From contig JAVVHL010000002.1 in assembly GCA_032249575.1 (NCBI GenBank), positions 7,318-39,317 on the forward strand: 32,000 nt of DNA, read 5' to 3'. This stretch comes from Candidatus Calditenuis sp. Its GTDB lineage: Archaea > Thermoproteota > Nitrososphaeria_A > Caldarchaeales > Calditenuaceae. Below the pieces are notes generated by a model. That model searched no databases and had not been told where the DNA came from. It worked only from the letters and a program-made list of their open reading frames with translations. The translations under genes were made by a program, and so were the position numbers. Below are positions 15,371 to 29,492 of this stretch, in pieces (within the stretch, counting starts at the first letter, position 1; each line of letters opens with the position of its first letter).

Positions 15371-15445
15371 GCCCCGGTAGTATAGCCCGGTCAAGTATGC
15401 CGGCCTCTCGAGCCGGAGACCCGGGTTCAAATCCCGGCCGGGGCA
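15371..15445 (+). tRNA. tRNA-Glu (anticodon CUC), no encoded CCA, no intron
   Basis: I folded the cloverleaf by hand:
- acceptor stem GCCCCGG/CCGGGGC
- D arm GTAT-AGCCCGGTCAA-GTAT
- anticodon stem CCGGC/GCCGG with loop CTCTCGA (anticodon CTC at 15407-15409)
- variable loop AGAC
- T arm CCGGG-TTCAAAT-CCCGG
- discriminator A
Total length is 75 nt. Confidence 0.9.
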
Positions 15446-15530: not shown

Positions 15531-15896
15531 TCACTGCTTGAAGTAAACCGAGAGGAGCATGTTGATGAAGCCGAGGTTGGGATTCGGCTTAGTTATGGCC
15601 ACGACGACGTCGCCGCCGTAATGGAGCGCGAACATGTATCTCCTGTCCTCGAGCTCGACGTAGATCTTCCTGTAGTCTCCCAACCTCATCATGTCCAGCA
15701 CCGACGTCACGACGCCCGATACGGTCGAGATGGCCGCTGCGAGGAAGTCGGGTCTCAGCGATATGGTGTTCGCGTAAGCTACTGGGGTCCCGTCGGGCTT
15801 CACTACCATCAGGACCTCCAGGGCTCCTCGGCTGACCCTGATGACCTCGTCGAGGTAGTTCTTGAGGGTCTCCGGGTCCTGCACGTAGCTGCTCAA
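15531..15896 (-). CDS. Roadblock/LC7 (MglB-like) domain protein
   Basis: 121 aa. The pattern 'GALEVLMVVKPDGTPVAYAN...LAAAISTVSGVVTSVLDMMRLGDYRKIYVELEDRRYMFALHYGGDVVVAITKPNPNLG' matches the Roadblock/LC7 family layout. Its TTG start overlaps the upstream gene's TGA as TTGA at 15896-15893. Confidence 0.8.
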   Translation of the reverse strand: MSSYVQDPETLKNYLDEVIRVSRGALEVLMVVKPDGTPVAYANTISLRPDFLAAAISTVSGVVTSVLDMMRLGDYRKIYVELEDRRYMFALHYGGDVVVAITKPNPNLGFINMLLSVYFKQ

Positions 15897-16597
15897 CCCC
15901 TCCTCACCCCCAGCATCGCATGGAGGAACGAAGAGCAGGAGGATATGGCGCGCTTGAGCGAATCTAGGGGGATCTTGCCTGAGGGCCTCACGTAGACGTA
16001 AACCTCCCTCTCCGCGAAGGCCTCGAGCTTGGCGACGGCTTCGTTGACGTCGTCCTCCAGAACGACGAGCCTGACGCCCTCGTTGGACATCGAGATGACG
16101 GAGTAGGCCTCTGCGAGGAGGGCGGCGACCTTCTCTGGTTCAACCGAACCGACGTAATCGATTACTTGACCTGCCGAGTCGAAGATGACAACCCCCTGCA
16201 GACCGTAGTGCCTCGCGAGCTCGTCGAGGGAGCCGAAGGTCAAAGGCTCCTCGGGAGGCGGGGCTTGGGGCTGTTGACCGACTGGTTGGGGAGCGGACGC
16301 AGGTAACCCTTCAAAGACCTGAGGCGGTGTAGGGCTGGGCGTCCGGCCCTCTTCGGCCTCCTTTTCGACAGGATGGGCAAGTAGGGGCTCGGTTGCTGGG
16401 GTTCTCACCTCAGGCCGAGCCTCGGCCTGCTGGGGCTGAGGGACCTCCCTCACTGTGATCTGTAGCGCCTCCCTCATCAGCTTCACCTCCGAAGCCAGCT
16501 TCCTCACAGTCCCGAGGACCTGAAGGGCGAAGATCACTAGGACGGCGGCCACTATCCCAACGGCGACCAACGTCGTCAGCTCCCAAGCAGACAGCAT
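15893..16597 (-). CDS. Membrane-anchored protein with a P/Q-rich linker and a C-terminal Roadblock/LC7-like domain
   Basis: 234 aa with ATG at 16597. The N-terminal TM helix is 'LTTLVAVGIVAAVLVIFALQVLG'. An ~90-aa P/Q/E/A-rich low-complexity linker follows. The C-terminal ~110 aa ('LQGVVIFDSAGQVIDYVGSVEPEKVAALLAEAYSVISMSNEGVRLVVLEDDVNEAVAKLEAFAEREVYVYVRPSG') reads as a Roadblock pattern. Confidence 0.65.
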   Translation of the reverse strand: MLSAWELTTLVAVGIVAAVLVIFALQVLGTVRKLASEVKLMREALQITVREVPQPQQAEARPEVRTPATEPLLAHPVEKEAEEGRTPSPTPPQVFEGLPASAPQPVGQQPQAPPPEEPLTFGSLDELARHYGLQGVVIFDSAGQVIDYVGSVEPEKVAALLAEAYSVISMSNEGVRLVVLEDDVNEAVAKLEAFAEREVYVYVRPSGKIPLDSLKRAISSCSSFLHAMLGVRRG

Positions 16598-16625
16598 CTC
16601 CCTCGGTCACCGGTTAAGTCTCGCG

Positions 16626-16633
16626 GTATAAAG
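16626..16633 (-). promoter_or_regulatory. TATA-like box (minus-strand reading CTTTATAC) for the membrane-Roadblock operon
   Basis: It is centred about 33 nt upstream of ATG 16597 in the 109-nt spacer. Confidence 0.35.
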
Positions 16634-16706
16634 CGTGATCCCCTCAATTACGCCAATATCTCCTGTGACAGATTCTGAGCATCCGTTGCGGAGGCCTTTG
16701 GAGAGC

Positions 16707-16934
16707 TCAGCCGACCGTGGACCCGGCGAGGGCGATCCTGATCCTAGTCCTGGCCTCCTCGAGCAGGAGCTTCCGCATGTAGCAGAGCTTGCAGACCGGA
16801 CCAGAGATGTGGTGAACGGTGCAGCTGGCGCAGATGAGCTGGCCGCAGACCACGCACCTCCTCGGAGCGAACCTGTCGGGATGATAGTAGCACTTGAAGG
16901 TCAGGCTCTCGCCCAAGGTCTCGGGGAGCGTCAT
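16707..16934 (-). CDS. Small B-box-like zinc-finger protein
   Basis: The Cys/His array is C-x2-H-x8-C-x2-C-x4-C-x2-C-x2-HH-x5-C-x2-C ('CYYHPDRFAPRRCVVCGQLICASCTVHHISGPVCKLCY'), followed by a short basic helix. The ORF is open to GTG 17030. However, codons upstream of ATG 16934 switch to A/T-ending codons (gta, tca, tat, aaa, caa), so I call ATG 16934 (75 aa). ATG 16976 is an alternative. Confidence 0.6.
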   Translation of the reverse strand: MTLPETLGESLTFKCYYHPDRFAPRRCVVCGQLICASCTVHHISGPVCKLCYMRKLLLEEARTRIRIALAGSTVG

Positions 16935-17087
16935 CGCAGGAGGTCCTAGAAACTTGGACTTATCACGGATCGGCATGCTGACTTGAGGTGATTTCAGCGT
17001 ATCTACTGAGGGATATCGTGAGAATACCACGGTAGCACTTCGCCGGCTCGTGCAGCCTCAACCCTCCGTTCTGTAGGCCGCTCCAGC

Positions 17088-17393
17088 CTAGGTCTTCGCC
17101 ACGGAACCGGAGGGGCCTGTGAGGATGTACCTCCGCCGATCGGAGAGGAGCTTGACGCCGTAAAGCCACCCGGCCATTGCTGGCACTGCACCCCTCACCC
17201 TGACCTCGGTCCCCCTGACGTCGATGACCAAGGTGCAAGGCCTCGTGACGTTCCCCTTCCTCTCGAACCAGTGGACCACCATCAGCCTCCCCGGCAGTAG
17301 GAAGATGTGGCCCTCGATCACCTCCAGCAGCTCGCCCTTCAGACCCGCATCGTCCTGACCGGCGTCCTTCTGAACGCTCCGACGCAGCCTCAT
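17088..17393 (-). CDS. Hypothetical protein (101 aa), stop/start-coupled to the PQQ-type dehydrogenase gene
   Basis: Its ATG at 17393-17391 overlaps the upstream TGA as ATGA at 17393-17390. Codon usage is GC3-rich and typical of coding sequence. I recognise no family. Confidence 0.5.
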   Translation of the reverse strand: MRLRRSVQKDAGQDDAGLKGELLEVIEGHIFLLPGRLMVVHWFERKGNVTRPCTLVIDVRGTEVRVRGAVPAMAGWLYGVKLLSDRRRYILTGPSGSVAKT

Positions 17394-18520
17394 CTCCTCG
17401 ACCCTATCACGAGGACCCTGTCGTCACCGGGCCTGGGCGCGCCTCTTCCGTCCCGGTTGCTGGTCAGCACGTACAGCGATCCGTCGGGCCCCTGCCTCAC
17501 GTCCCTCAGCCTCCCGTAGGTCCCCTGCAGCAATCTGAAGTGCTCGACCGGCCTCATCTCTTCTTCGTCGAACCGCACGACGTGGAGAGCCGCCCCCCTC
17601 AAGGCCGCGAAGAGCAGGCATCCTTTCAGCTCGGGGAGGTCGGAGGAGGTGCAGAAGTCGCACCCGGATGGAGCCCAGGTCTCGTCGCCGCTCTCGAGGA
17701 CCGGGTCGATGTACCTCGGATCGCCGGCCCTCCCTATGACGTGGGGCCAGCCGTAGTTACCTCCGGGAACTATCAGGTTCAGCTCGTCGTGGGCGAAGGC
17801 ACCGAACTCGCCCGTCGGTCCGTGCTCAGTCGCGAAGAGCCTCTTGTGCTTTGGGCTCCAAGCTATCCCCTGCGGGTTTCTGTGGCCGAGGCTGTAGATC
17901 GGAGAGCCGGGGAAGGGGTTGTCGCTAGGCACATTTCCGTCAGGCCTGATCCTCAGTATCTTGCCTGCCAGCGAATCGAGCCTCTGGGAGAGCTCCGGCC
18001 TCCTCGCGTCGCCGGTCGTGACGTAGACGTTTCCGTCAGGTCCGAGCCTCACCCGACCTCCGTCGTGGACGCTCGCTCCCTCAACAGGTCCCAGCACATC
18101 AACGCCGTCTCGCAGCGTCAGGTCATCGTAAACGGTAAGGACGTTCGCGAGGGAACCTCCCCTCATCACAGTCCTGTAGAGCAGGATCCGGGGTCCGGGC
18201 CTGAGCAGCTCGCAACCGAGGAGTCCGCCCTCGCCGACGTGCGCAACCTCCACCGTCCCTAGGATCTGGGTCCTGCCCGTGTTCAGGTCGACGAGCCTTA
18301 CCCTTCCAGGCCTCTCGGTGACCAGCGCCTCGCTTTCAGAGATGAACGCGATCGACCAGGGGATCTCGAGACCGGTGACGAGGTCGCGGACCTCGATCGA
18401 TCCGATGCCTTTCTGCCCCTTTTGTTCTGGGCTCTCCAGGCTCCGCGTCAGAATCAGGAATGCGGCCGCTAATCCTCCGGCTGCGAGGGCAACGATGAAC
18501 TCCCTCCGCCTTATCCTCAA
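17390..18520 (-). CDS. Soluble PQQ-dependent aldose sugar dehydrogenase family (glucose/sorbosone dehydrogenase, YliI/Asd-like beta-propeller)
   Basis: 376 aa with a TTG start. It carries 'LEIPWSIAF', 'GEGGLLG', 'HDGGRVRLGPDGNVYVTTGD', 'GKILRIRPDGNVPSDNPF', 'SLGHRNPQGIAW', 'EHGPTGEFGAFAHDELNLIVPGGNYGWP' and 'GRLRDVRQGPDGSLYVLT'. The N-terminus 'RIRRREFIVALAAGGLAAAFLIL' resembles a twin-arginine signal or membrane anchor. Confidence 0.85.
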   Translation of the reverse strand: MRIRRREFIVALAAGGLAAAFLILTRSLESPEQKGQKGIGSIEVRDLVTGLEIPWSIAFISESEALVTERPGRVRLVDLNTGRTQILGTVEVAHVGEGGLLGCELLRPGPRILLYRTVMRGGSLANVLTVYDDLTLRDGVDVLGPVEGASVHDGGRVRLGPDGNVYVTTGDARRPELSQRLDSLAGKILRIRPDGNVPSDNPFPGSPIYSLGHRNPQGIAWSPKHKRLFATEHGPTGEFGAFAHDELNLIVPGGNYGWPHVIGRAGDPRYIDPVLESGDETWAPSGCDFCTSSDLPELKGCLLFAALRGAALHVVRFDEEEMRPVEHFRLLQGTYGRLRDVRQGPDGSLYVLTSNRDGRGAPRPGDDRVLVIGSRR

Positions 18521-18549
18521 CCCTCTCCACCCGAAGTGACCGACGGCCC

Positions 18550-18562
18550 AAAGAAATAATTC
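18550..18562. promoter_or_regulatory. Shared A/T-rich block AAAGAAATAATTC in the 59-nt divergent spacer (PQQ dehydrogenase / EVE-like gene)
   Basis: It is centred about 24 nt upstream of ATG 18580 on the plus side and about 36 nt upstream of TTG 18520 on the minus side. The minus-side start is preceded by GGTGGAGAGGG. Confidence 0.35.
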
Positions 18563-18579
18563 TCGCCGAACGACACATC

Positions 18580-19041
18580 ATGAACGTGACGAACTACTGG
18601 ATCATGGTAGCGAAGGACCACAAGGGAAAGGAGAAGGGGTCCGTGATCCCGGCGCAGGCGGTCATCGAACGCCGGGTTAGATACGGAATCTGGTTCATCA
18701 ACCCGAGGAACCCGTACGCGAGGAGGCTCGAACCCGGAGACAGGGGTCTGATGCTCGCGCTCGGAAGGGAGGAAAGGCAGTTCTTGGGAGAGCTGACCAT
18801 CAACAGCAGGCCTCTTCCGGTCGATGCGGCCCTCGAGTCGCTGAAGGAGGGTCTGCCGTCGACGATGTTGACCCACTACCTCAAGATAACAGCCATCCTG
18901 TGGCCCAGGCCGAAACCGCTCGAGATGTTCCTCCACAAGCTGGACTTCGTGAAGAACAGGACCAAGTGGTACTCGTACTTCCAAGGCTCACTCAGGCCGA
19001 TCTCTGAGGCCACGTTCAAGGCGATCGCCTCAGACCCCTGA
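18580..19041 (+). CDS. PUA-like / EVE-like domain protein (tentative)
   Basis: 153 aa. It has the N-terminal 'NYWIMVAK', a central 'LEPGDRGLMLALG...FLGELTI' and a C-terminal 'FQGSLRPISEATFKAI'. These resemble the EVE layout (YWLMK ... GD.v.fY ... S.l.pit.eef..i). The family call is from memory only; the CDS itself is well supported. Confidence 0.55.
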   Translation: MNVTNYWIMVAKDHKGKEKGSVIPAQAVIERRVRYGIWFINPRNPYARRLEPGDRGLMLALGREERQFLGELTINSRPLPVDAALESLKEGLPSTMLTHYLKITAILWPRPKPLEMFLHKLDFVKNRTKWYSYFQGSLRPISEATFKAIASDP

Positions 19042-19046
19042 TGGCC

Positions 19047-20315
19047 TCACCTCGGTGGGACGCTGAGGACCCAGGCCGGCCTCCTGACCGTCACGACCTC
19101 ACCGCGCACGAGCCTTTCCCGATACGGCGGCACCTCGATGTACCCGTCTGCGAAGGCGATGCTCGAGAAAGCGGAGGACTCGCTGGGCATCGGATGGCAT
19201 AGCGTCCTCTCTCCGTAGCGCTCTAGCCTGACCCAGACGACCTTCCTGAAGTCGACGTACCTGGTGAAGGTCAGGTCCTCGGCGAGCTCGGCCTTGACCT
19301 CGTAAACCAGCTGCTCTGGGTCGAAGTAGCCCAGACGTCCCAGGATGGGGACGGCCAAGTAGTTGAAGACGTTCACGGTCGAGTGTATCAGCGCGGGGAG
19401 CACGACCACCGGCTTGCCGTCCACGACCGCTACCCCTCCGACCCTTCCCGGTTGGAGCTGGAGTCCTTGAGCGAAGAACCAGTTGCCGGACCTGTGGAGG
19501 ATCGAGGCCACGTCGGTGTCTCCGACGCTCGAACCGCCTATCGTCAGCACCATGTCCGAAGCCCTCAGCGCCTCCTCAAGCGCCCTCGATACCTCACCGA
19601 CCTCGTCCGGCAGGAGGCCCGCATACCTCGGGACGCACGGAAGGGCCGAGAGGAAGGAGATCACGGTGGGCGCGTGGGTGTTGAGCGTCTTCAGACCCGT
19701 AGCCTCCTCCGGGTCGTCGGTGAGCTCGGACCCTATCGAGATGACGGAGACGACCGGCCTCCTGAAGACCTCGACGCGCCTTATGCCCAGCGCCTCCATG
19801 AGCGCCGACTTCACAGGCCTCAATACCTCTCCCCTCTTCGCGATCACTTGGCCCTCCTTGACGTCCGAGCCTCTCCGGTCCACGTACTGATGGGGTGTGA
19901 CGGGGTTCCTGACGACGAGCTCTCCGTCCTCCACCTCGACCTCCTCCTGCGGGACGACCGCATCGGCACCCTCTGGAAGTAAACCTCCGGTGAGGATTCG
20001 CCTCGCGTGGCGCGGAGCAAGAGGTGGCCCGGCGACGTTGGGCAGGTTGAGGTGACCGTCTATCTTGAGCCTCACAGGCCTCTCCGGCGAGGCGCCTGCC
20101 GTATCCGAGGACCGAACCGCGTATCCGTCCATGTGGGACATGTCGGCTTGAGGTCTGGGAGCCGGTGCGACGACGTCGACGGCCAGCACCCTTCCGACTG
20201 CTTCCAGCGGCCTGACCAGCTCGGTCACGCCTATCGGAGAGACCCTCTCGAAGACCTCCCTCAGGACCTCCTCGACCGGGTAGAAACGCTCGATCGCCCT
20301 GTGCCTGTGAACCAT
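19047..20315 (-). CDS. moeA: Molybdopterin molybdenumtransferase MoeA
   Basis: 422 aa with ATG at 20315. It carries 'SHMDGYAVRS' and 'RILTGGLLPEGADAVV', a MoCF-type domain with 'TIGGSSVGDTDV', and a C-terminal MoeA_C beta domain. Confidence 0.9.
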   Translation of the reverse strand: MVHRHRAIERFYPVEEVLREVFERVSPIGVTELVRPLEAVGRVLAVDVVAPAPRPQADMSHMDGYAVRSSDTAGASPERPVRLKIDGHLNLPNVAGPPLAPRHARRILTGGLLPEGADAVVPQEEVEVEDGELVVRNPVTPHQYVDRRGSDVKEGQVIAKRGEVLRPVKSALMEALGIRRVEVFRRPVVSVISIGSELTDDPEEATGLKTLNTHAPTVISFLSALPCVPRYAGLLPDEVGEVSRALEEALRASDMVLTIGGSSVGDTDVASILHRSGNWFFAQGLQLQPGRVGGVAVVDGKPVVVLPALIHSTVNVFNYLAVPILGRLGYFDPEQLVYEVKAELAEDLTFTRYVDFRKVVWVRLERYGERTLCHPMPSESSAFSSIAFADGYIEVPPYRERLVRGEVVTVRRPAWVLSVPPR

Positions 20316-20824
20316 TCCTTTCCTGATTTCTCGGCCTCGAACTTCAAGAGCATTCCCTTGATCCTCGGATCGGGCGAGTACCCTCCCGGCGATCCGTCAG
20401 ACCTGACGACCCTGTGACACGGTATCAGGATGGGGATCGGGTTGGCGGAGAGGGCTGCGCCGACTGCCCTCGCGGCCCTCCCAGCGCCCACGGCCCTAGC
20501 GACCTCGGCATAGGTCTTCGTCTCACCGTAGGGTATCGTTGACGTCACCTCCCAGACCCTCTTCTGGAAGTGTGTCCCCTCAGGCCGGAGAGGCAGATCG
20601 AAGGACCTCCTCAAACCCCTGAAGTACTCGTCGAGCTGGACCAGGGCTCTCTCCAAAACCTTCGCATCAGTAGGCAGTGGCGAAACGCCGTCGACCTCAG
20701 GCTCGGACAGGATCGAGACCCCGACGACGGCGCCTCCGGAGACGACAACGTAAACCCTTCCTATCCAGGTATCGATGTGCCCCACAGCGTCCCTCTCACG
20801 CGGCCTCTCCTTCAACGCCGCCAC
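20261..20824 (-). CDS. ogt: Methylated-DNA--protein-cysteine methyltransferase
   Basis: It carries 'FQKRVWEVTSTIPYGETKTYAEVA' and 'RAVGAALSANPIPILIPCHRVV', the latter holding the active-site PCHR. The start is GTG 20824, which overlaps the purB end by 29 nt, or GTG 20785. The 3' end overlaps the moeA start by 55 nt. Confidence 0.9.
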   Translation of the reverse strand: MAALKERPRERDAVGHIDTWIGRVYVVVSGGAVVGVSILSEPEVDGVSPLPTDAKVLERALVQLDEYFRGLRRSFDLPLRPEGTHFQKRVWEVTSTIPYGETKTYAEVARAVGAGRAARAVGAALSANPIPILIPCHRVVRSDGSPGGYSPDPRIKGMLLKFEAEKSGKEWFTGTGRSSVSTRSRRS

Positions 20825-22199
20825 CGCCAGCCTCGCCGACCTTCAGGCCTGTCCTGCGCATCACCTCCCTGTAGACTTTCTCCGCGATCTCGACCGAGAG
20901 GCCCGTGTACTCGAGCGGGTCGGAAGGCATCACTTGATCCGGCCTCAGGCCGTACTTCCTGCAGAGCTCACCTACCGCGTCCCTCAGGCTCAAACCCGAC
21001 GAGAGCATCGACCTCAGCTCGTCGATCACGTCGAACCCGTGCCTCCTGAACCTCAGCTGCACCGCCTCTGCCAGCACCTCCTCGTGCCTCCTGAGGTCTT
21101 CCTCCATAGCCTTCGCGTCGAAGCTAGCCCTCCCCAGGAACCTCCTCAGCTGCCTGACGCCTATGAGGAGGTGCGCGATCCCTACGGCGACGTTCCTCCT
21201 CAAGGTCGAGTCGGAGAGGTCCCTTTGGAGGCGTGTGGTCTGAAGGCGGTTGGCGACGAAGCTCAGGAGGTTGGCGGCCAGCTCGAGGTTACCCTCGGCG
21301 TTCTCCGCCTCCACCGGGTTCTGCTTCTGGGGCATCGTCGAGGACCCCACCCTCGTCGGCCTCAGCTCCACGTATCCGAGCATCGAGAGCAGCCACAGGT
21401 CCCTCGCGAGGTCGGTGAGGGCCATCGAGAGGGAGGCGAGGTGGTGGAGGTAGATCGAGTACCTGTCGGCCGGCAGGACCTGCTTCGTCACCAGGACTGG
21501 TTCCAGGCCCAGAGACCTCAGGAACCTTTCGACGAACCCGAGGGTCCTCTCGCCGAGAAACTCCCTGAGGCCGGCGTAACTCCCTATCGCTCCGCTCAAC
21601 TTCCCCGGCATCCTGAACCCCCTCAACCTCTCGATCCACTCGAGCGTCCTCATCGCGTGGTAGGCGAGCTCCCTCCCCAGCGTCGTCGGGACCGCAGGCC
21701 TTCCGTGCGTCCTCGCCAGCATCGGCGTCGCCCTCTCCCTCCACGCCACCTCCGCCAGCTCAGCGCAGAACCCCTCGAGCTCTGGAACCAGCACACTCTC
21801 GTTCACCGCCTTCAGCGAGAGCGAGAAGGCAGTCGAGTTGACGTCCTCCGAGGTCAGCCCCGCGTGGACCCAGACCGATGACCTGAAGAAGCCTTTGGAC
21901 CTCAGCCTCGACTTCAGGAACCTGACGATCGCCTCCACGTCGTGCCCCACCTCTGCCTCGATCGACTTCACCTCCTCCGCCTCCTCAGGACCGAAGCCCT
22001 CGGTGAGTCCCCTGAGGTAAGTCAAGGCACCGGGCTCTAAATCGATGAACCCCTCCTCGGCGAGGGCCCTGAGGTACTCGACCTCCACGATGACCCTGTA
22101 CCTGATGTAACCGAACTCGGAGAGGTGGGGCCTGAGGTCCTCGACCAGGTCGGCGTACCTCCCGTCGACGGGCGAGAGCGCCAGGAGCCTCGAGGTCAG
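20796..22199 (-). CDS. purB: Adenylosuccinate lyase
   Basis: It has the N-terminal 'LSPVDGRY' and the fumarate-lyase signature 'GSSTMPQKQNP'. The ORF is open to ATG 22361 (521 aa), but that adds 54 Arg-rich codons lying inside purA. I place the start at the CTG at 22199-22197, which overlaps the purA TGA; see the findings. The end coordinate is firm and the start is uncertain. Confidence 0.85.
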   Translation of the reverse strand: MTSRLLALSPVDGRYADLVEDLRPHLSEFGYIRYRVIVEVEYLRALAEEGFIDLEPGALTYLRGLTEGFGPEEAEEVKSIEAEVGHDVEAIVRFLKSRLRSKGFFRSSVWVHAGLTSEDVNSTAFSLSLKAVNESVLVPELEGFCAELAEVAWRERATPMLARTHGRPAVPTTLGRELAYHAMRTLEWIERLRGFRMPGKLSGAIGSYAGLREFLGERTLGFVERFLRSLGLEPVLVTKQVLPADRYSIYLHHLASLSMALTDLARDLWLLSMLGYVELRPTRVGSSTMPQKQNPVEAENAEGNLELAANLLSFVANRLQTTRLQRDLSDSTLRRNVAVGIAHLLIGVRQLRRFLGRASFDAKAMEEDLRRHEEVLAEAVQLRFRRHGFDVIDELRSMLSSGLSLRDAVGELCRKYGLRPDQVMPSDPLEYTGLSVEIAEKVYREVMRRTGLKVGEAGGGGVEGEAA

Positions 22200-23443
22200 C
22201 GCTCCAACACCTCTTCTATCGCCGGCCCAATTCCGACGTGGGAGACGGGGACGCCCAGCTCGGACTCGACGAACTCGACGTACCTCCTCGCGTTGGGATG
22301 CAGAGCTCCGTAGCCTTCTTTCATCAACCTGGCCCGCTCGGCGTCGTCGATCCTCGGCCATCCCTCGAGCTCCACGTACCTGGGCCTCACGGACTCCAGG
22401 GCCTTCAGGTCCTCAGGGAAGCGCGCCGCGTTCTCATAGGAAACGCAGACCTTGACCTTCTCCAGGCCTGAGAGCGTGTCGATCCTCGTCATGAAGACCG
22501 AGTCGACGCCGTTCAGCTCGACCGCGTACCTCAGCTGCGGAATGTCGAGCCATCCTATCCTCCTCGGCCTGCCGGTGGTGGCGCCGTACTCTCCGCCCGC
22601 CGACCTGATGCGCTCAGCGACCTCTCCGTGCATCTCCGTCGGGAAAGGCCCGGAGCCGACGCGGGTCGTGTATGCCTTGGCGACTCCGACGACCTTCCCG
22701 AGGCTCCTGAAGGGGACGCCGCATCCGATCGCTGCGCTCGCTGAGGTCGTAAAGCTCGAGGTCACGTAGGGGTAGGTTCCGAAGAGGAGGTCGAGCATCG
22801 TGCCCTGCGCACCCTCGAAGACCACAAGACCTCCTGCGCCGAGGACGTCAGAGATCACCGGGCCGGTCTCAACGACCTTTACGCCTAACCCCTCGAACGA
22901 CTCCATCAGCTCCCTCGCCTCAGCTTCAGGTTCAGTGCCGTCGAGCCTCCAGAAGCCCTTCAGCTCCCTCAGCTTCGAGACGAGTGTGTCAGGCTCGAGC
23001 AGGTCCGCCACCCTGATCGCCAGCCGCGCAGCCCTCTCCACCGACGTGGGGCCTATCCCTCTCCTGGTGGTGCCTATGGCCCTGCTGCCCTTCAGGCCCT
23101 CGAGGAAGTCCTCCGCAGCCCTCGCCGACGGCCTTATCACCGAAGCCCTAGGGCTCAGGTAGACGTCGATCTCGCCCCTCACGCTTCTGACCTCCTCCAG
23201 CTCCTCGCGAAGGACCTTCAGGTCGACGAGGACTCCGGCGCAGATCGCGGCCGCACCGCACACCACGCCTCCGGCTGGGACGAGGTGCATCCTCAGGACC
23301 TTTCCACCGTAGAAGATTGTGTGGCCTGCGTTGGGCCCTCCGTTGAACCTTACAGCCAGCCTCGCACCCCTCGAGAAGTAGGCCGCTACCTTGCCCTTGC
23401 CTTCGTCGCCCCACTGAAGGCCTATCACTGTTATCGCTGGCAA
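22196..23443 (-). CDS. purA: Adenylosuccinate synthetase
   Basis: It carries 'GLQWGDEGKGK', 'GPNAGHT', 'GTTRRGIGP' and 'GATTGRPRRIGWLD'. Its TTG start lies 1 nt after the guaB stop. Confidence 0.95.
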   Translation of the reverse strand: MPAITVIGLQWGDEGKGKVAAYFSRGARLAVRFNGGPNAGHTIFYGGKVLRMHLVPAGGVVCGAAAICAGVLVDLKVLREELEEVRSVRGEIDVYLSPRASVIRPSARAAEDFLEGLKGSRAIGTTRRGIGPTSVERAARLAIRVADLLEPDTLVSKLRELKGFWRLDGTEPEAEARELMESFEGLGVKVVETGPVISDVLGAGGLVVFEGAQGTMLDLLFGTYPYVTSSFTTSASAAIGCGVPFRSLGKVVGVAKAYTTRVGSGPFPTEMHGEVAERIRSAGGEYGATTGRPRRIGWLDIPQLRYAVELNGVDSVFMTRIDTLSGLEKVKVCVSYENAARFPEDLKALESVRPRYVELEGWPRIDDAERARLMKEGYGALHPNARRYVEFVESELGVPVSHVGIGPAIEEVLER

Positions 23444-23444
23444 G

Positions 23445-24896
23445 TCAAGTCACTCTCTCGACGTCGTGGGGCAGGCTCTCCCTGTAACCTGCCTCGGTGA
23501 TCCTCACGAAGACGGCCCTCTCCCTCAGCTCCTTGATGGTCCTGGCTCCGAGGTAGCTCATTCCTGACCTGAGGCCTGCGACGAGCTGCGCCAGGACCTC
23601 TGCGGCCGATCCCCTGTAGTCCACGTAAGCCTCGACCCCCTCGGCCATGTACGAGTAGTCGGCCACATCGTCGAGGTCCACCTCTCCCTTCTCCCTCGCC
23701 TCCCTTCCTAGCATCGCGTAGAACGAAGCCATTCCCCTGTAGACCTTGCTCTTCTTCCCGTTCCTGACCACCACGGCTCCAGGGCTCTCGTCGGTCCCTG
23801 CGAGGAGCATCCCTATCATCACGGTCGATGCTCCTGCGGCGAGGGCCTTCACCAAGTCAGCGGAGCTCCTGATCCCTCCGTCTGCTATCATCGGCACACC
23901 TGTCCTCTCGGAGACCTCGGCGCAGTTCATGATCGCTGTCAGCTGTGGAACGCCCACACCGGCTACGATCCTCGTGGTGCAGACGGCTCCCGGCCCTATG
24001 CCCACCTTGACCGCGTCGGCGTAGGCGGCCAGGTCCTCGAAGCCCTCGGGCGTAGCGACGTTCCCTGCCACCAGCTGCACCTCGTCGCCGAATTCCTTCC
24101 TCAGCCTCTTCAGGACGTTGAGCACCATCTCTGTGTGGCCGTGGGCGACGTCGATAACGATCGCGTCAACCTCGGCCTCCAGCAGCGCCTTCGCCCTCTC
24201 GAAGTAGTCGCCCTTCACGCCTATCGCCGCTGCCACCCTCATCCTCCCCTTCGCGTCCCTCGTCGAGTGAGGGTAGAGCCCCCTCGACTGGATGTCCTTG
24301 GCCGTTATCAGGCCCCTCAGCCTCCAGTCGTCGTCGACGATCGGGATCTTCTCTATGCGGTAAGTCCTGATCAGCTCTATGGCCTCCTCTTGAGTTATCC
24401 CGGGCCTCGCCGTGATCAGCTCGTGCCTCGGCGTCATCACCTCCCTCACGGGCCGCTCGTCAGGCTCGAAGAGTAGGTCCCGCCTCGTCACGATCCCCCA
24501 TACCTTCCTCTCCCTGTCCACCACGACGAGCCCTGAGACGCCGTGCCTCAGCATCTCCCTCCGCGCCTCACCGACCGTCGCATCGAGCGGTATCGTGTAC
24601 GGGTCCTCGATCAGGACCCCCTCGGCCCTCTTCACCTTCTGGACCTCCCTGACCTGCTGCTCGATCGGCATGAACCTGTGGATCACGCCTATCCCTCCCT
24701 CCCTCGCCATCGCTATCGCCATCCTGCTCTCGGTGACCGTGTCCATCGCGGCCGAGACGATCGGTATATGCAGCTCTATCTTCCTCGTGAAGAGCGACTT
24801 CGTCGAGACCTCCTTTCTGGACCTGATGTCGGAGTACCTCGGCACCAGAAGCACGTCGTCGAAGGTCAGGGCCAGCTCCTCAACGAAACGGCCCAA
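23445..24896 (-). CDS. guaB: IMP dehydrogenase (with CBS pair)
   Basis: It carries 'ALTFDDVLLVPRYS', a tandem CBS region and the catalytic loop 'VGIGPGAVCTTR'. 'ADGGIRSSADLVKALAAGA' and 'YRGMAS' are also present. The start is TTG 24896. Confidence 0.95.
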   Translation of the reverse strand: MGRFVEELALTFDDVLLVPRYSDIRSRKEVSTKSLFTRKIELHIPIVSAAMDTVTESRMAIAMAREGGIGVIHRFMPIEQQVREVQKVKRAEGVLIEDPYTIPLDATVGEARREMLRHGVSGLVVVDRERKVWGIVTRRDLLFEPDERPVREVMTPRHELITARPGITQEEAIELIRTYRIEKIPIVDDDWRLRGLITAKDIQSRGLYPHSTRDAKGRMRVAAAIGVKGDYFERAKALLEAEVDAIVIDVAHGHTEMVLNVLKRLRKEFGDEVQLVAGNVATPEGFEDLAAYADAVKVGIGPGAVCTTRIVAGVGVPQLTAIMNCAEVSERTGVPMIADGGIRSSADLVKALAAGASTVMIGMLLAGTDESPGAVVVRNGKKSKVYRGMASFYAMLGREAREKGEVDLDDVADYSYMAEGVEAYVDYRGSAAEVLAQLVAGLRSGMSYLGARTIKELRERAVFVRITEAGYRESLPHDVERVT

Positions 24897-24925
24897 CCGA
24901 TCCCACCGCTAATTCGAGGTCCTCA

Positions 24926-24935
24926 GCAAAAAACG
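24926..24935 (-). promoter_or_regulatory. T6-containing TATA-like box (minus-strand reading CGTTTTTTGC) upstream of guaB
   Basis: It lies 30-39 nt upstream of TTG 24896 and is the only strong A/T block near the operon's 5' end. It could also act as a second oligo-T terminator for DoxX. Confidence 0.3.
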
Positions 24936-24983
24936 TGTGCCCGGGAACGGGCCGGCCGGTTATGAGAAGTTGACGCAGAGCAG

Positions 24984-24988
24984 AAAAA
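24984..24988 (-). terminator. Oligo-T (T5) tract 25 nt downstream of the DoxX stop
   Basis: The minus strand reads GCGTTTTTCTGC. Archaeal RNA polymerase terminates at oligo-T tracts. This is the first such tract after the stop codon at 25015-25013. Confidence 0.25.
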
Positions 24989-25012
24989 CGCATGAGGGTA
25001 ACGGGACGGCCC

Positions 25013-25492
25013 TCAGAAGATCCGGAGGAGGGCGTCGACCGAGAAGGAGCCTGGTCCGAGGAGCAGCAAGAGCAACGCAACGCCGAGTATCAGCAGGTCG
25101 AACTCCCAGCCTCCAACACCTGCCATGAACCCCCTCATGAACCTCCTCGAGTTGGAGACCATCTGGTGCAGCACCTCAGGCGGCGGAACCATCGTCCCGA
25201 GCTTGCCCAGATAGAGCGCTATTGTTCCGATCATCTCGAGCAGGAAGAGGAGCGAGACGATCCTGGTCATCAGCCCCAGTATGAGGAAGATGCCGCCTAG
25301 GAACTCGAGGACTCCCACGAGGTCGAAGAGTACCGGATGTATCCCTAACTGGGACATGCCTCCCCTCATCATCGGCCTCGCCGGACCGAAGAGCTTCGGC
25401 GCTCCGTGTACCACCATGATGAAGCCCAGAATCAACCTCACCAGCAGTAGCCCAGCGTCGCCGTAAGAGCTCAGGAAGCCGAGTTGGAGCAT
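25013..25492 (-). CDS. DoxX family membrane protein
   Basis: It has four hydrophobic segments and the motif 'LILGFIMVVHGAPKLFG' typical of DoxX. I prefer ATG 25492 ('MLQLGFLSS...') over TTG 25510. Confidence 0.8.
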   Translation of the reverse strand: MLQLGFLSSYGDAGLLLVRLILGFIMVVHGAPKLFGPARPMMRGGMSQLGIHPVLFDLVGVLEFLGGIFLILGLMTRIVSLLFLLEMIGTIALYLGKLGTMVPPPEVLHQMVSNSRRFMRGFMAGVGGWEFDLLILGVALLLLLLGPGSFSVDALLRIF

Positions 25493-25506
25493 GCTGTTTT
25501 CACCTC

Positions 25507-25519
25507 GCAACCAGATTGC
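25507..25519. promoter_or_regulatory. Inverted repeat GCAA-N5-TTGC in the DoxX/HxlR divergent spacer (weak operator candidate)
   Basis: I read it directly from the sequence. The half-sites are only 4 bp, so this could easily be chance. Confidence 0.15.
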
Positions 25520-25528
25520 AAAACGCTA

Positions 25529-25538
25529 CTTTTTTAAC
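25529..25538 (+). promoter_or_regulatory. TATA-like box CTTTTTTAAC for the HxlR-family gene
   Basis: It is centred about 30 nt upstream of ATG 25564 and supports that ATG as a leaderless start. Confidence 0.4.
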
Positions 25539-25563
25539 TGGGAAGTGGCATCCGCGGTACCGG

Positions 25564-25956
25564 ATGACGACGGAGCCTGTCGAGGAAGAGTATGGGAATT
25601 GGTGCCCTGTGGTGGCGGCGTCGAAGGTCCTCTCGAGCGTATGGGCGATCGTCGTGATCTATTACCTGATGGACGGGCCGAAGGGCTTCAACGAGCTCCT
25701 GAGGGCCATACCGGGCATGAACTCGAAGACCCTCTCGAGGACCCTGAAGTCGCTCGTGTCGAAGGGGCTTGTGGTGAGGGAGGTAGTGAGCGTCCAGCCC
25801 TTCGCTGTGCATTACAGGCTCACACCGATGGGCGAGGAGCTGGTGCCTGTCCTCAACGCTTTGCGGGAATGGGGCGAGAAGTGGGCGCGTCCAGGAACAA
25901 CACAAGGAGGGACTCAGATCCCCACCGTCAGGGACAACAGGGGAAAGTCACAATAA
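25564..25956 (+). CDS. HxlR family winged-helix transcriptional regulator
   Basis: 'CPVVAASKVLSSVWAIVVIYYLMDGPKGFNELLRAIPGMNSKTLSRTLKSLVSKGLVVRE...YRLTPMGEEL' matches the HxlR pattern (CP...G.KW...L..G..RF.EL...IPGIS.K.L...L..LE..GLV.R). The ORF is open from TTG 25516, but I prefer ATG 25564. Confidence 0.85.
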   Translation: MTTEPVEEEYGNWCPVVAASKVLSSVWAIVVIYYLMDGPKGFNELLRAIPGMNSKTLSRTLKSLVSKGLVVREVVSVQPFAVHYRLTPMGEELVPVLNALREWGEKWARPGTTQGGTQIPTVRDNRGKSQ

Positions 25957-25981
25957 ACGGAGCGAGGAGCACAGAGGCCGA

Positions 25982-26932
25982 GTGGGGGCCTTGGGCAACG
26001 AGGGATATGCGGTCGTCGCCGAAGATCTAGTCAAAGTCTACGGGAATCGCGTTAGGGCCCTGGACGGCGTATCGCTTCAGGTGAGGAGGGGCGAGGTCTT
26101 CGCGCTGCTCGGTCCGAACGGCGCCGGCAAGACCACCCTCGTCGAGATCTTCCTAACCCTCAGGAGGCCCACTTCGGGCAGGGCGTACGTTCTGGGCGAG
26201 GACGTCCTCGACAAAAAGGGGCGATCGGTCGTCAGGGAAAGGGTTGGGGCGATCCTGCAGGAGTCCGAGTCCTTCGAGCTCCTGACCGTAAGGGAGACGC
26301 TCAAGTTCTACGGAAGGATCTATGGCGCCGACGCCGAAAGGGCTGAAGAGCTCATCGAGCTGCTCGACCTGAGAGATCACGCTGACAGGCTCTACGGCAA
26401 GCTCTCCGGAGGTCTGAGGAGGAGGGTCCTTCTGGCGGCAGCGCTGATCAACGACCCCGAGCTGGTCTTCCTCGACGAGCCGACGACGGGCCTCGACCCC
26501 GCATCGAGGAGGGAGGTCTGGGGCCTCCTGAGGAGGATGAGAAAGGAAGGCGTCACCGTCTTCCTGACGACGCACTACATGGAGGAGGCGGAGGCGCTCT
26601 CCGACAGGGTCGGGATCATCGTCAACGGAAAGATTGTGGCCGTCGGGTCTCCGAGGGAGCTGGCGGAGAGGTACGGCGGTGCGAAGACCGTGAGGGTCTC
26701 AGGTTTGAGGCCTGAAGTGGCCGAGGAGTTGCAGAGGGAGCTGGGCGAGGCGAGAGTCGACGGTGACGAACTGGTCTGGACTGCCTCCGACCGCTCGGAG
26801 GTGAATAAGATAGTCCAGAAAGTCATAGCGGCCTCTCCGGAGGCGATGGTTTCCGTGAGGAATCCTGGCCTCGAGGAGGTCTTCCTGAGACTCACAGGCC
26901 GAAGGATAACGGAGGAGGGTGGGATCGCTTGA
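25982..26932 (+). CDS. ABC transporter ATP-binding protein (ABC-2/DrrA-like)
   Basis: Walker A is 'GPNGAGKTT', the signature motif is 'LSGGLRRR', Walker B is 'LVFLDEPTTGLD' and the H-loop is 'TTHYMEEA'. The start is GTG, with GAGGAG 10 nt upstream. Confidence 0.9.
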   Translation: MGALGNEGYAVVAEDLVKVYGNRVRALDGVSLQVRRGEVFALLGPNGAGKTTLVEIFLTLRRPTSGRAYVLGEDVLDKKGRSVVRERVGAILQESESFELLTVRETLKFYGRIYGADAERAEELIELLDLRDHADRLYGKLSGGLRRRVLLAAALINDPELVFLDEPTTGLDPASRREVWGLLRRMRKEGVTVFLTTHYMEEAEALSDRVGIIVNGKIVAVGSPRELAERYGGAKTVRVSGLRPEVAEELQRELGEARVDGDELVWTASDRSEVNKIVQKVIAASPEAMVSVRNPGLEEVFLRLTGRRITEEGGIA

Positions 26933-28179
26933 GGAGGGCGCTCGCCTTCTCTTCTGTTGTAGCCCGCAGTTGGATGAGGAGCAAATCGGCCCTGTTCTGG
27001 ACGACGGTCTTCCCTCTGATGTTGCTGCTGATCTTCGGTGCGGTCTTCGGAGAAACGAGGGCCCAGACCTACCCGTTGCTCGTGGTGAACGAAGACCTCT
27101 ACCCCTCGGGGCCACCGACCAAGCTCTCATGGATCTTCATCAATGCCCTCAACTCGACAGGCGTCATCGAGGTCCACCAAGTCGATCCGGGGCAAAACCT
27201 CGAAGAGGCCATGAGGTCGAAGGGGATCTACAGGGCCCTCGTGATCCACAGGGGCTTCGAGGAGGAGCTGACGAAGGTCTCTGTGGCGGGAAGGGTGGAC
27301 GTCATGGTGTCTACGTTGGAGTACGTCCTCGCCAACTTCGGCAACGTAACCTCTCCTGAAAACAGGTCGCAGATGGAATCGGGCCTCTCGGCCCTCAAGG
27401 CCTTCAGGGCGAACCTCAGCTCCGGCACCGTCGAGGTAACCTACGTCAGGGATCCCAACGACAGGGCCTCATCGGCCGTCGAGGGCGTCATCAGGTCGTT
27501 CCTTGCAGCCTTCAACCTGAGGCTCCTCGGAGCCAACGAGTCGGTGACGGTCAGCCCAGCAGACCTCGGCTTCAGGAGGACCAGGCCCATAGACTACTAC
27601 CTTCCTGGCATCCTGATGGCCTTCGTCATGACGAACGGCGTCCTAGGCGTGGCCCCTCCCCTTGCCGAGATGCGGAAGTCCAGGCAACTCAAGAGGCTCG
27701 CGGTAACGCCCCTCAAGCTCTCGGAGCTCCTGACCGGTTTCATGCTGGTCCAGGTGCTGATGTCCTCGGTCCTCGCGGTCCTGCTCGTCGCTGTCGGATG
27801 GGCCGTCTTCAGGCCGTCCTTCACGCTCAATCCCTATGCGTTGGCGTTGACCGTCGTCGCCTCGCTCTTCTTCACCTCCCTCGGACTGCTGATAGGCTCG
27901 GCGCTGAAGGAGTTGGAGGCGGTCGTTGCTGCGAGCAACGTCATCGTCTTCCCGATGATGTTCCTCTCCGGTGCCTTCTGGCCCCTCGAGTTCGCACCCC
28001 CAATCATGCGGACGATCGCAGGCTTCACGCCCCTGTACTACTTCGCCGAGGGTCTTCGCTCCGTAGGCGTCTACGGCGAGCTGGGCCCGTCGCTTACCGC
28101 CTTCGCGATCGGTTTGGTCGCGTCTCCTGTCCTCCTCTTCATCGGATCGTCGCTATTGGGGAGGGAGCTGGCTGAGTGA
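26929..28179 (+). CDS. ABC-2 type transporter permease with a large extracytoplasmic loop
   Basis: Its TTG start overlaps the ATPase TGA as TTGA at 26929-26932. It has an N-terminal TM helix ('LFWTTVFPLMLLLIFGAVF'), an ~190-aa non-hydrophobic region and then five C-terminal TM helices. Confidence 0.8.
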   Translation: MRRALAFSSVVARSWMRSKSALFWTTVFPLMLLLIFGAVFGETRAQTYPLLVVNEDLYPSGPPTKLSWIFINALNSTGVIEVHQVDPGQNLEEAMRSKGIYRALVIHRGFEEELTKVSVAGRVDVMVSTLEYVLANFGNVTSPENRSQMESGLSALKAFRANLSSGTVEVTYVRDPNDRASSAVEGVIRSFLAAFNLRLLGANESVTVSPADLGFRRTRPIDYYLPGILMAFVMTNGVLGVAPPLAEMRKSRQLKRLAVTPLKLSELLTGFMLVQVLMSSVLAVLLVAVGWAVFRPSFTLNPYALALTVVASLFFTSLGLLIGSALKELEAVVAASNVIVFPMMFLSGAFWPLEFAPPIMRTIAGFTPLYYFAEGLRSVGVYGELGPSLTAFAIGLVASPVLLFIGSSLLGRELAE

Positions 28180-28189
28180 CGAACTGCCG

Positions 28190-28205
28190 GTGATAGGCTT
28201 TTTAC
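28190..28205 (+). promoter_or_regulatory. BRE/TATA-like box GTGATAGGCTTTTTAC upstream of the aminotransferase gene
   Basis: It is centred about 27 nt upstream of ATG 28229, which favours that ATG over GTG 28190. Confidence 0.35.
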
Positions 28206-28228
28206 GGCAACGCGTGAAGCCGGGGCAG

Positions 28229-29425
28229 ATGGTCAGGCTGATCAGGTTCTTCGCGCCCCGCGGCATCAAAGTCTCGAGGGCAAAAGGGCAGTACGTCTGG
28301 GACTCGGAGGGGAGGAGGTACCTCGACTTCCACACCGGAAACGGAGCGGCGCTCCTCGGCCATCTGAACCCCTACGTGATGAGGAGGCTGAAGGAGCAGA
28401 TGGAGAGGGTAACGGTCCTTCCGCCGCTTTACGACAGCGAAGTCCTCGAAGAGGCCCTCTCTGCCCTCGGAAGGATACTCCCGCCACACCTCGGCAACGT
28501 CTTCTTCCAGAACTCCGGAAGCGAGGCGGTGGAGCTGGCCCTCAAGCTCGCACGTAAGAGGACGAGGAGGAGGAAGGCGGTCGCCTTCACCGGGTCCTTC
28601 CACGGCCGGACCTTCGGCGCCCTCTCTGTGACCTTCAACAGGACGTACCGCGAGGGCTACGATCCCTTTCCCTTCGAGGTGGAGTTCCTGCCCTTCAACT
28701 CGCTCGAGGACCTGCGCAGGATCGGAGAGGACGTGGCCGCTGCGATCGTCGAACCGGTTCAGGGAGAGGGAGGACTGACGCCTGCGACCGACGAGTTCCT
28801 GAGAGAGTTGGAGAGGAGGTGCAGGGAGGTGGGAGCTTACCTGATCGTCGACGAGGTCCAGTCGGGATTCGGCAGGACGGGTCTGATCTGGGACCACTTG
28901 AGGGCTAACGTGAGGCCTGACGTCTTGGTCGCAGGCAAGTCAATTGGAGGAGGGTTCCCCGTTAGCCTCGTCGCGGTCGACGATGAGATTGCCTCAAAGG
29001 TCGAGGAGGGAGAGCACGGCTCCACCCACGGCGGGAACCCCCTCGCCCTCGCGGCGGTCACCGGAGGCGTCGAGGCCCTCATTTCCGAGGACGTCCCCTC
29101 AAAGGCCCATGCGGCCTCCGAGCTGCTCTTCGCAGGTTTACGGGAGGTGGCGGCCGAGAACGCGGAGCTCGTCAGGTCCGTGAAGGGAAAGGGGCTTATG
29201 TTGGGACTGGAGCTGCGATTCAACCCGTCCCAGGCGATAAAGGACCTCCAGTCGAAGGGGCTTCTGTCTCTGAAGGCGGGGACGACCGTGCTGAGGTTCC
29301 TTCCGCCCTACATGATAACGCAAGAGGACATCGAGTGGGCCGTCGCCAGGGTCTCCGAATCGCTCTCCGCCCTCAAGGCCTCGAGGGCCTCCGGACGCCA
29401 GACGCCTGCCCAGAGCCCGCTATGA
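28229..29425 (+). CDS. argD: Class III PLP aminotransferase, acetylornithine / LysW-linked (ArgD/LysJ-type)
   Basis: It carries 'AKGQYVWDSEGRRYLDF', 'FFQNSGSEAVE' and 'DEVQSGFGRTG', with the PLP Lys in 'LVAGKSIGGGFP', plus 'THGGNPLA'. The ORF is open from GTG 28190. Confidence 0.9.
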   Translation: MVRLIRFFAPRGIKVSRAKGQYVWDSEGRRYLDFHTGNGAALLGHLNPYVMRRLKEQMERVTVLPPLYDSEVLEEALSALGRILPPHLGNVFFQNSGSEAVELALKLARKRTRRRKAVAFTGSFHGRTFGALSVTFNRTYREGYDPFPFEVEFLPFNSLEDLRRIGEDVAAAIVEPVQGEGGLTPATDEFLRELERRCREVGAYLIVDEVQSGFGRTGLIWDHLRANVRPDVLVAGKSIGGGFPVSLVAVDDEIASKVEEGEHGSTHGGNPLALAAVTGGVEALISEDVPSKAHAASELLFAGLREVAAENAELVRSVKGKGLMLGLELRFNPSQAIKDLQSKGLLSLKAGTTVLRFLPPYMITQEDIEWAVARVSESLSALKASRASGRQTPAQSPL

Positions 29426-29454
29426 CCTACGCATCATCCCAGGGAAAGCCCGCT

Positions 29455-29489: not shown

Positions 29490-29492
29490 ACC

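Follow-up and report, generated by a model that had tools for sequence, protein, structure and literature searches.

Overlapping genes for a membrane-tethered and a soluble Roadblock protein in Candidatus Calditenuis: probable regulatory subunits of an MglA/MglB-type small-GTPase switch with a displaced GTPase gene

What do two Roadblock-type proteins, one of them anchored in the membrane, regulate where no GTPase gene lies beside their own genes? This question is raised by a 32,000-nt stretch of DNA from Candidatus Calditenuis sp. (contig JAVVHL010000002.1 of assembly GCA_032249575.1, positions 7,318 to 39,317 of the forward strand), in which the gene of a membrane-tethered Roadblock protein (B) overlaps that of a soluble Roadblock protein (A). 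The whole stretch is referred to below as the window, and its positions are counted from its first nucleotide. From comparisons with related genomes we consider it likely that B and A are the two regulatory subunits of a small-GTPase switch of the MglA/MglB type, conserved across Caldarchaeales, and that the GTPase gene of this switch has been displaced in Calditenuis.

Three open reading frames (ORFs) of the minus strand were found exactly where an earlier note on this DNA had placed them: a 75-aa zinc-finger ORF (16707-16934), gene B (15893-16597; 234 aa) and gene A (15531-15896; 121 aa). The TGA stop codon of B (15893-15895) and the TTG start codon of A (15894-15896) overlap in the sequence TTGA (15893-15896), and a spacer of 109 nt separates the end of the zinc-finger ORF from the ATG of B (16597), both as described in that note. 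Its proposal that B and A are translationally coupled is borne out by the overlap in the window together with the tight spacing of the two genes throughout the family. The ratios of non-synonymous to synonymous substitutions (dN/dS), calculated against two relatives, are 0.04-0.05 for A, 0.28 for B and 0.19-0.33 for the zinc finger; because these values are low, all three were regarded as real genes under purifying selection and not as chance ORFs.

Protein B contains a single strong hydrophobic segment (residues 10-28; mean Kyte-Doolittle value 2.92), which lies in a predicted transmembrane (TM) helix of about residues 10-32 (16502-16570, minus strand). Among 51 members of the B family, the mean number of Lys plus Arg residues is 0.12 in the 15 residues preceding this helix and 3.1 in the 15 residues following it. 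Given this bias and the well-established positive-inside rule, B is predicted to be a single-pass protein of N-out/C-in topology, whose Roadblock domain is cytoplasmic, where contact with a GTPase would be possible. The AlphaFold model of B, obtained with a 33-sequence alignment, comprises an N-terminal helix (residues 4-49), a disordered part and a confident C-terminal domain. The disordered linker, rich in Pro, Gln and Glu (residues 46-112; 16262-16462, minus strand), has a predicted local distance difference test score (pLDDT) below 50, and its length and sequence vary across the family. The C-terminal domain (residues 124-229; 15911-16228, minus strand; pLDDT 78-94) has the order alpha-beta-beta-alpha-beta-beta-beta-alpha. 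A Foldseek comparison, suggested in the earlier note as a check on this domain, matched Roadblock structures of the PDB, i.e., LAMTOR2/3, MglB of Myxococcus and Thermus, and Asgard Roadblock homodimers (E-values from 2e-5 to 5e-4), the best target by TM-score being MglB (6hjm_D; 0.72). Protein B also scored 25.9 bits against the Pfam family Robl_LC7 (cutoff 23), and residues F139, G143, A158 and A159 are invariant in an alignment of 18 sequences. The architecture that had been proposed for B, consisting of an N-terminal TM helix, a Pro/Gln/Glu-rich linker and a C-terminal Roadblock fold, was thus upheld by both AlphaFold and Foldseek.

The soluble protein A scored 19.4 bits against Robl_LC7, which is under the cutoff. 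Its AlphaFold model (pLDDT 78.6; predicted TM-score, pTM, 0.71) shows Foldseek TM-scores of 0.65-0.76 with LAMTOR2/3, MglB and Asgard Roadblock proteins, in agreement with the original reading of A as a Roadblock protein. Homologues of A, named roadblock/LC7 domain-containing proteins by NCBI, share with it an invariant KPDGTPVA motif, which includes an Asp-Gly pair of the MglB type. Profile searches against PDB sequences were weak for both proteins (E 0.21 for A; E 0.018 for B, to dynein LC7), and an NCBIfam search for a Roadblock assignment gave no match. Because the sequence searches are weak, the fold assignment relies on the structure models, in which A and B both adopt the Roadblock fold. 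An origin of the two as recent paralogues was ruled out, as BLASTP and hhalign detect no similarity between them.

Homologues of A and B were found exclusively in metagenome-assembled genomes (MAGs) of Nitrososphaerota/"Aigarchaeota", the closest species being Ca. Calditenuis fumarioli, whose A protein is 93% identical. A scan of one genome per GTDB species yielded 30 loci, all of them in Caldarchaeales (related loci are denoted below by L numbers). Each locus encodes a 176-272-aa protein with an N-terminal TM helix directly 5' of a 118-135-aa Roadblock protein, the spacing between B and A being -46 to +9 nt across all related loci, and 27 of the 30 encode a 168-187-aa small GTPase directly 3' of A, at a distance of -44 to +5 nt and most commonly with a 4-nt overlap; these lengths and gaps come from longest-ORF calls, and the larger overlaps stem from upstream start calls. 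The exceptions are L012, of Calditenuis, and L038 and L040, which contain paralogous pairs. Coupling of a Roadblock gene to an MglA-family GTPase gene within four genes, as used in an earlier survey (PMC4316618), is accordingly seen in 27 of the 30 orthologous loci and not in the window. In the annotated related genomes outside the Calditenuis clade (L004, L010, L050 and L051), the gene order is GSDH, in some cases the zinc finger, B, A, the GTPase, a convergent tRNA-intron endonuclease gene and PhoU_div. Genes B and A are always adjacent, and they are duplicated as a pair in six loci (L030, L032, L034, L038, L040 and L041). As judged from gene content and order, the conserved unit consists of the TM-Roadblock, the soluble Roadblock and the GTPase.

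An adjoining GTPase gene is likewise missing from L001-L003, the loci nearest to the window, and the loss of adjacency is confined to the Calditenuis clade, the window included. The absence of an adjacent GTPase, pointed out in the earlier note, is therefore true of the window but is not a property of the system; it reflects a rearrangement in this clade only. The window contains one small GTPase gene, located at 29493-30047 on the plus strand, and none next to the B-A pair. The encoded protein (184 aa) matches the Pfam families Arf (67 bits) and ATP_bind_1 (61 bits), aligns over nearly its full length with MglA (3t12_A; E 3e-10), and is 56-70% identical to the GTPases encoded directly 3' of A in L004-L025, the identity roughly following the divergence of A. 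Four motifs, G1 GxxxxGKTT, G2 TTV, G3 FG[ST]PGQ and G4 NKxD, are invariant in 12 aligned GTPases including that of the window, in which the last three read TTV, FGSPGQ and NKQD. In the signature of MglA groups 2-5, G2 has Thr instead of the Arg finger, G3 reads GTPGQ where other GTPases have DxxGQ, and G4 is [NT]KxD, and MglB proteins coupled to these groups carry a conserved Asp-Gly pair (PMC4316618). The window GTPase conforms to this motif definition, and the Asp-Gly pair is present in A and absent from B. Because of its identity to the adjoining GTPases and its MglA group 2-5 signature, the window GTPase is likely to be the displaced cognate of the B-A pair. The earlier note had already named this unlinked gene as the likely partner, and the position of its orthologues, directly 3' of A in the great majority of the species-level loci, speaks for that choice.

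In the window, 12.6 kb and about 15 genes separate the B-A pair from the GTPase gene, which is on the opposite strand. An assembly artefact was ruled out: the identical GTPase protein is encoded on 13 independent metagenome contigs, and the aminotransferase-GTPase-NFACT context is alike in the four places compared, so the split is real. The gene lies beyond the upstream end of the operon, and re-inverting positions 15531-29492 puts it directly after A in the same orientation; judged by this geometry, one inversion spanning about 13.9 kb would be enough to return the genes to their ancestral arrangement. At the A-proximal boundary, where relatives have the GTPase gene, ARAGORN identified a tRNA-Glu(CTC) gene convergent with A (15371-15445, plus strand). 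Other tRNA genes occupy this boundary in L001, L003 and L012, and this difference suggests that rearrangement has occurred there repeatedly. The 67-nt gap preceding the displaced GTPase gene (29426-29492, plus strand) contains an imperfect inverted repeat, CCTCCTCCC ... GGAGGGAGG, overlapping a Shine-Dalgarno-like GGAGG just 5' of the ATG, and the gene may be co-transcribed with the HxlR-ABC-ABC2-aminotransferase row.

The wider gene context gives a clue to the function of this module. In all 16 loci outside Calditenuaceae (L026-L041), it is located within a type IV pilus-like cluster, with T2SSE and/or T2SSF beside it. The T2SSE ATPase (about 600 aa; 120-122 bits; PilB3_C domain) is encoded near the module, and the gene of the T2SSF platform protein (about 590 aa; 8-9 TM helices; 82-84 bits) adjoins it. 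Pilin-like genes encoding class III signal sequences (e.g., SGISPVMATVILVAIAIVIAIAVAFWA in small pilin-like proteins) lie 3' in eight loci (L030, L032, L034, L035, L036, L039, L040 and L041), and the clusters also contain a further classical Roadblock gene and genes of larger pilin-like proteins. Bacterial motility by type IV pili is under the control of MglA/MglB, for example in Myxococcus and Thermus. The placement of the module in a pilus-like cluster in all 16 distant loci suggests an archaeal counterpart of this control over type IV filaments. Clusters of this kind (e.g., L036:1526-10530 and L030:201-13161) occur in Wolframiiraptor, Geocrenenecus and related Caldarchaeales and include a conserved protein of about 200 aa and unknown function; besides a B-A-GTPase operon, Wolframiiraptor contains a second pair, B'-A', directly 5' of T2SSF.

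Roadblock proteins have been noted before in archaeal type IV pilus loci (PMC4858521). As in L026-L041, Roadblock/LC7 genes of arCOG02603 are found there in T2SSE/T2SSF/pilin clusters; however, that survey devotes one sentence to them and says nothing of TM-anchored forms or of a small GTPase coupled to them. Roadblock and GTPase genes are missing from the type IV pilus loci that it lists for Caldiarchaeum, and the window locus is devoid of type IV pilus genes. For Ca. Calditenuis fumarioli, archaellum genes and a type IV pilin have been reported elsewhere in the genome (PMC10547907).

The six paralogous B'-A' pairs, which lack a GTPase gene and are always located directly 5' of T2SSF, would also fit a different explanation, in which the B-A pair is a GTPase-independent scaffold, accessory to a membrane machine such as T2SSF, and the link to the GTPase has been lost in the Calditenuis clade. 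The window pair ends at a convergent tRNA gene, with the GTPase behind unrelated genes, and as many as 328 orphan MglB homologues have been listed (PMC4316618), which is in keeping with such a scaffold. We nevertheless consider it unlikely, since a GTPase orthologue with every catalytic motif invariant is intact within the same 32 kb, the MAG containing the pair-only locus L040 has, on a different contig from the same isolate (L026), a complete B-A-GTPase operon, and A retains the Asp-Gly pair associated with MglA contact.

The zinc finger, which the earlier note had joined with the two Roadblock proteins into a trio, was considered as a further component. A TTTATA box (16627-16632, minus strand), located about 30 nt 5' of the B start codon, is a candidate promoter of the B-A genes; in the alignment with relatives, the motif TTTATAC is found upstream of B in the window, L001, L003 and L004. 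Because this box is conserved, the B-A(-GTPase) unit probably has its own promoter. The zinc-finger protein contains 10 Cys/His residues, eight of which are conserved in its homologues (C15, H18, C27, C30, C35, C38, C48 and C51), in the pattern CxxH-x8-CxxC-x4-CxxC-x9-CxxC. This spacing fits a two-zinc module of the B-box1-like or double-knuckle type, as in the B-box (PF00643) and the double zinc ribbon (PF18912, PF12773). However, the protein scores under the Pfam cutoffs (zf-B_box, 20.6 bits with a cutoff of 24.1; DZR_2, 18.1 bits), and the His-His pair of the B-box consensus, present in the window protein, varies among homologues. Thus, the eight-ligand, B-box-like spacing and the location 109 nt upstream of B stand as first described, and the protein is a candidate member of the B-box family. 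The protein further differs from those families in being a stand-alone polypeptide of 75 aa; in one Calditenuaceae subclade (L004:6930-7307 and L021-L025) it has 122-129 aa and an additional N-terminal CPxC...CPFC zinc ribbon. Membership in arCOG06883, whose double zinc-ribbon proteins are linked to thaumarchaeal type IV pilus loci, was not adopted, those proteins having about 290-410 aa compared with 75 aa.

It appears doubtful that the zinc finger is an integral third subunit, acting as an adaptor or effector in a trio or, where present, a quartet. Its gene does lie directly 5' of B and on the same strand in every locus of the Calditenuis clade and in the groups of L004, L010 and L051, at identities down to 36%, and it is under purifying selection. 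This arrangement is, however, found in 11 of the 30 species loci, as well as in L001-L006, L010-L011 and L051, and the zinc finger is missing from L007-L009, L017-L019 and all of L026-L041. The 109-nt spacer with its conserved TTTATA box separates it from B, and the whole GSDH-zinc finger-B-A block is syntenic, so that the adjacency may reflect common descent. The trio was therefore discarded as the conserved unit, and the zinc finger is best viewed, from its distribution, as a lineage-specific accessory or a mere syntenic neighbor, apparently without a promoter shared with B-A.

Among characterized systems, the MglA/MglB modules, especially those of groups 2-5 and the 1:2 systems (PMC4316618; structures 3T12, 6IZW and 6H5B), are the closest to the unit described here. 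Common features are (i) Roadblock-fold regulators with a GTPase gene adjoining in the orthologous loci, (ii) a GTPase with TT in G2, G[ST]PGQ in G3 and NKxD in G4, (iii) one Roadblock with the Asp-Gly pair, (iv) two Roadblock genes per GTPase, as in the documented systems with a 1:2 ratio of MglA to MglB genes (PMC4316618), and (v) a link to the machinery of type IV pili, which is also known for Myxococcus and Thermus. The Calditenuis system differs in that one Roadblock is extended at its N-terminus by a TM helix and a long disordered tether, in that its two Roadblocks lack detectable similarity, whereas MglB forms a homodimer, and in that its GTPase is without the bacterial insertion and is encoded by an unlinked gene in the window. 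Group 4 MglA proteins of archaea were reported in 2014 from Euryarchaeota and one korarchaeon only (PMC4316618), and the Asgard archaea have soluble Roadblock homodimers, with GTPases encoded mostly outside operons with them (PMC10933270). The conservon CvnA-CvnB-CvnC-CvnD resembles the unit in combining a Roadblock (CvnB), an MglA group 2 GTPase (CvnD) and a membrane component in one operon. However, the membrane component there is not a Roadblock but the sensor histidine kinase CvnA, the DUF742 protein CvnC has no equivalent here, and G4 reads NKQD here in contrast to the NxFD of group 2. Neither a conservon kinase nor DUF742 was matched among the window proteins scanned and the genes called in related loci, and the conservon reading was rejected because equivalents of CvnA and CvnC are absent. 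The system is probably an MglA/MglB-type switch with two unlike Roadblocks, one of them membrane-tethered, and not a GTPase-less trio.

A more distant parallel, put forward in the earlier note, is the Ragulator/LAMTOR complex (EGO in yeast) with its Rag/Gtr GTPases. The shared principle is a membrane-attached Roadblock platform for a small GTPase, and LAMTOR2/3 chains are among the top structural matches of the A and B models. Beyond this, the two systems diverge. The Ragulator anchor is a separate lipidated subunit (LAMTOR1/Ego1), whereas here a TM helix provides the anchor in cis; Rag GTPases form heterodimers and possess C-terminal Roadblock domains of their own, whereas the GTPase here is a single-domain protein of the Arf/MglA type; and Ragulator has five subunits, with no sequence-level relationship detected. 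Neither a Rag-type GTPase with a C-terminal Roadblock nor a separate lipidated wrapping subunit was found. The principle of a membrane-fixed Roadblock pair serving a small GTPase may hold, but the GTPase is of the MglA type, the anchor is in cis and MglB fits the models equally well, and the comparison is an analogy in principle only. A nutrient-signaling platform in the Ragulator sense, in which a membrane-fixed Roadblock heterodimer would recruit a GTPase that reports the status of amino acids or metabolites and the zinc finger would serve as adaptor, is in our view very improbable. Apart from the LAMTOR matches and the membrane anchor, it could draw on the location of the window GTPase gene behind aminotransferase and ABC (ATP-binding cassette) transporter genes, but this neighborhood is specific to the rearranged clade. 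The 184-aa protein with its MglA-type GSPGQ lacks the C-terminal domain of Rag/Gtr, a LAMTOR1-like wrapping subunit is absent, and the proposed adaptor is missing from more than half of the species loci.

We thus favor the MglA/MglB-type switch, for which the following scheme is proposed. Protein B would be a single-pass membrane protein displaying a cytoplasmic Roadblock domain on a flexible tether of about 70-90 residues, and A a soluble Roadblock that keeps the Asp-Gly pair typical of MglBs coupled to MglA groups 2-5. The overlap of their genes would ensure that A and B are made in fixed proportion. At the cytoplasmic side of the membrane they would most likely pair as a Roadblock heterodimer, which would bind one MglA-like GTPase and control its location and its nucleotide state, in the role of GTPase-activating protein (GAP) and/or guanine nucleotide exchange factor (GEF). 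In the Calditenuis lineage, a rearrangement would have split the GTPase gene from the operon. The likely output would be a type IV filament machine, i.e., a pilus or an archaellum.

Several points weigh against this scheme. Binding of A to B and of either to the GTPase is something we infer, and the same goes for heterodimer formation, for GAP/GEF activity, for filaments as the target in this organism and for the inversion, the last modeled purely from position and strand. The two proposed partners are without detectable sequence similarity, and a conserved Asp-Gly pair is missing from B, in which the Asp between the invariant residues F139 and G143 varies. The orthology of the GTPase was assigned from similarity, and a closer paralogue may exist elsewhere in the genome. 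In the window, its gene is preceded by the HxlR-ABC transporter-aminotransferase row, with a 67-nt gap devoid of an obvious TATA box, and its expression may be uncoupled from that of the B-A pair. Finally, type IV pilus genes were found neither in the window nor in L001-L025 at distances of up to 7-8 kb from the module, which places these loci outside the T2SSE/T2SSF/pilin clusters that contain the module in all of L026-L041, and the filament link is drawn from loci whose A proteins are only 30-40% identical.

The family of B is small. When 1.84 billion representatives were searched exhaustively with HMMER and the profile of the B family, 38 proteins were retrieved at E<=1e-3, most of them matched over nearly their whole length and a few being short fragments. 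Named homologues of B are mostly annotated as "hypothetical protein," with one cluster member named roadblock/LC7 domain-containing protein, and a few distant matches come from "Thermoprotei" MAGs. Two loci from 'Thermoprotei/Thermoproteales' MAGs (L042:1128-3247 and L043:574-2693) encode consecutively a 123-aa Roadblock, a 148-aa protein weakly similar to SLM4/Ego3, a 187-aa small GTPase and a 237-aa TM protein weakly matching the B profile and ArlX; this row of four genes may be related to the module, with its genes in a different order. In L044 (4659-7118) and L045, a 214-aa protein weakly matching the B family (E 9e-4) has a 111-aa unknown protein as its 5' neighbor and, on its 3' side, a KaiC-like ATPase (DUF7125) together with a coiled-coil helix-turn-helix protein; an adjoining small GTPase gene is absent.

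In the window, the B-A pair is surrounded by housekeeping genes (GSDH, MoeA, purine biosynthesis, DNA ligase and AspRS). Between GSDH and the zinc finger lies a 101-aa ORF (17088-17393, minus strand) overlapping the GSDH stop codon by 4 nt. It is restricted to the Calditenuis clade (78% identity; dN/dS 0.25-0.35), is called as a gene in L001 and L003, and gave no match in Pfam and NCBIfam scans. A 153-aa ORF divergent from GSDH (18580-19041, plus strand) shows a weak match to the EVE domain (E 0.05), and a gene of similar size is called at this position in most related loci. In L051 (3430-4454), from an 'Aigarchaeota' MAG, genes of a ubiquitin-like protein and a JAB deubiquitinase are located about 3.5 kb 5' of the GSDH-zinc finger-B-A-GTPase block, and RING-finger proteins are encoded near the module in L007-L009.

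Searches of the accessible literature yielded no account of a TM-anchored Roadblock subunit or of this Caldarchaeales module, and nothing specific on a Roadblock-GTPase system of Aigarchaeota. The analysis indicates that the "missing" GTPase is still present in the window, having been moved by a local rearrangement, and provides two "hypothetical" proteins with a cognate partner and a concrete model; as small proteins of a thermophile, they should be well suited to biochemical and structural work. Small-GTPase/Roadblock modules are considered ancient. MglB associates with the membrane through a basic patch and Ragulator through a lipidated subunit, and to our knowledge the membrane attachment of prokaryotic Roadblock/GTPase modules is otherwise poorly understood. 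A Roadblock with its own TM anchor, kept across an archaeal order, would be a third solution to this attachment. Given that the module lies within pilus-like clusters of the sister families, archaea, too, may place their type IV filaments under the control of a GTPase, as is known for Myxococcus and Thermus. More tentatively, and as a possibility to which we give somewhat less than even weight, a TM-tethered heterodimeric Roadblock platform, with the anchor and its long flexible tether in one subunit and the motif for GTPase contact in the other, may serve in Caldarchaeales, and possibly in other TACK archaea, to place an MglA-like GTPase at the machines of type IV filaments and to switch it there; this would be the archaeal equivalent of the MglAB switch for polarity and pili in bacteria and would also offer a prokaryotic precedent for the Ragulator principle.

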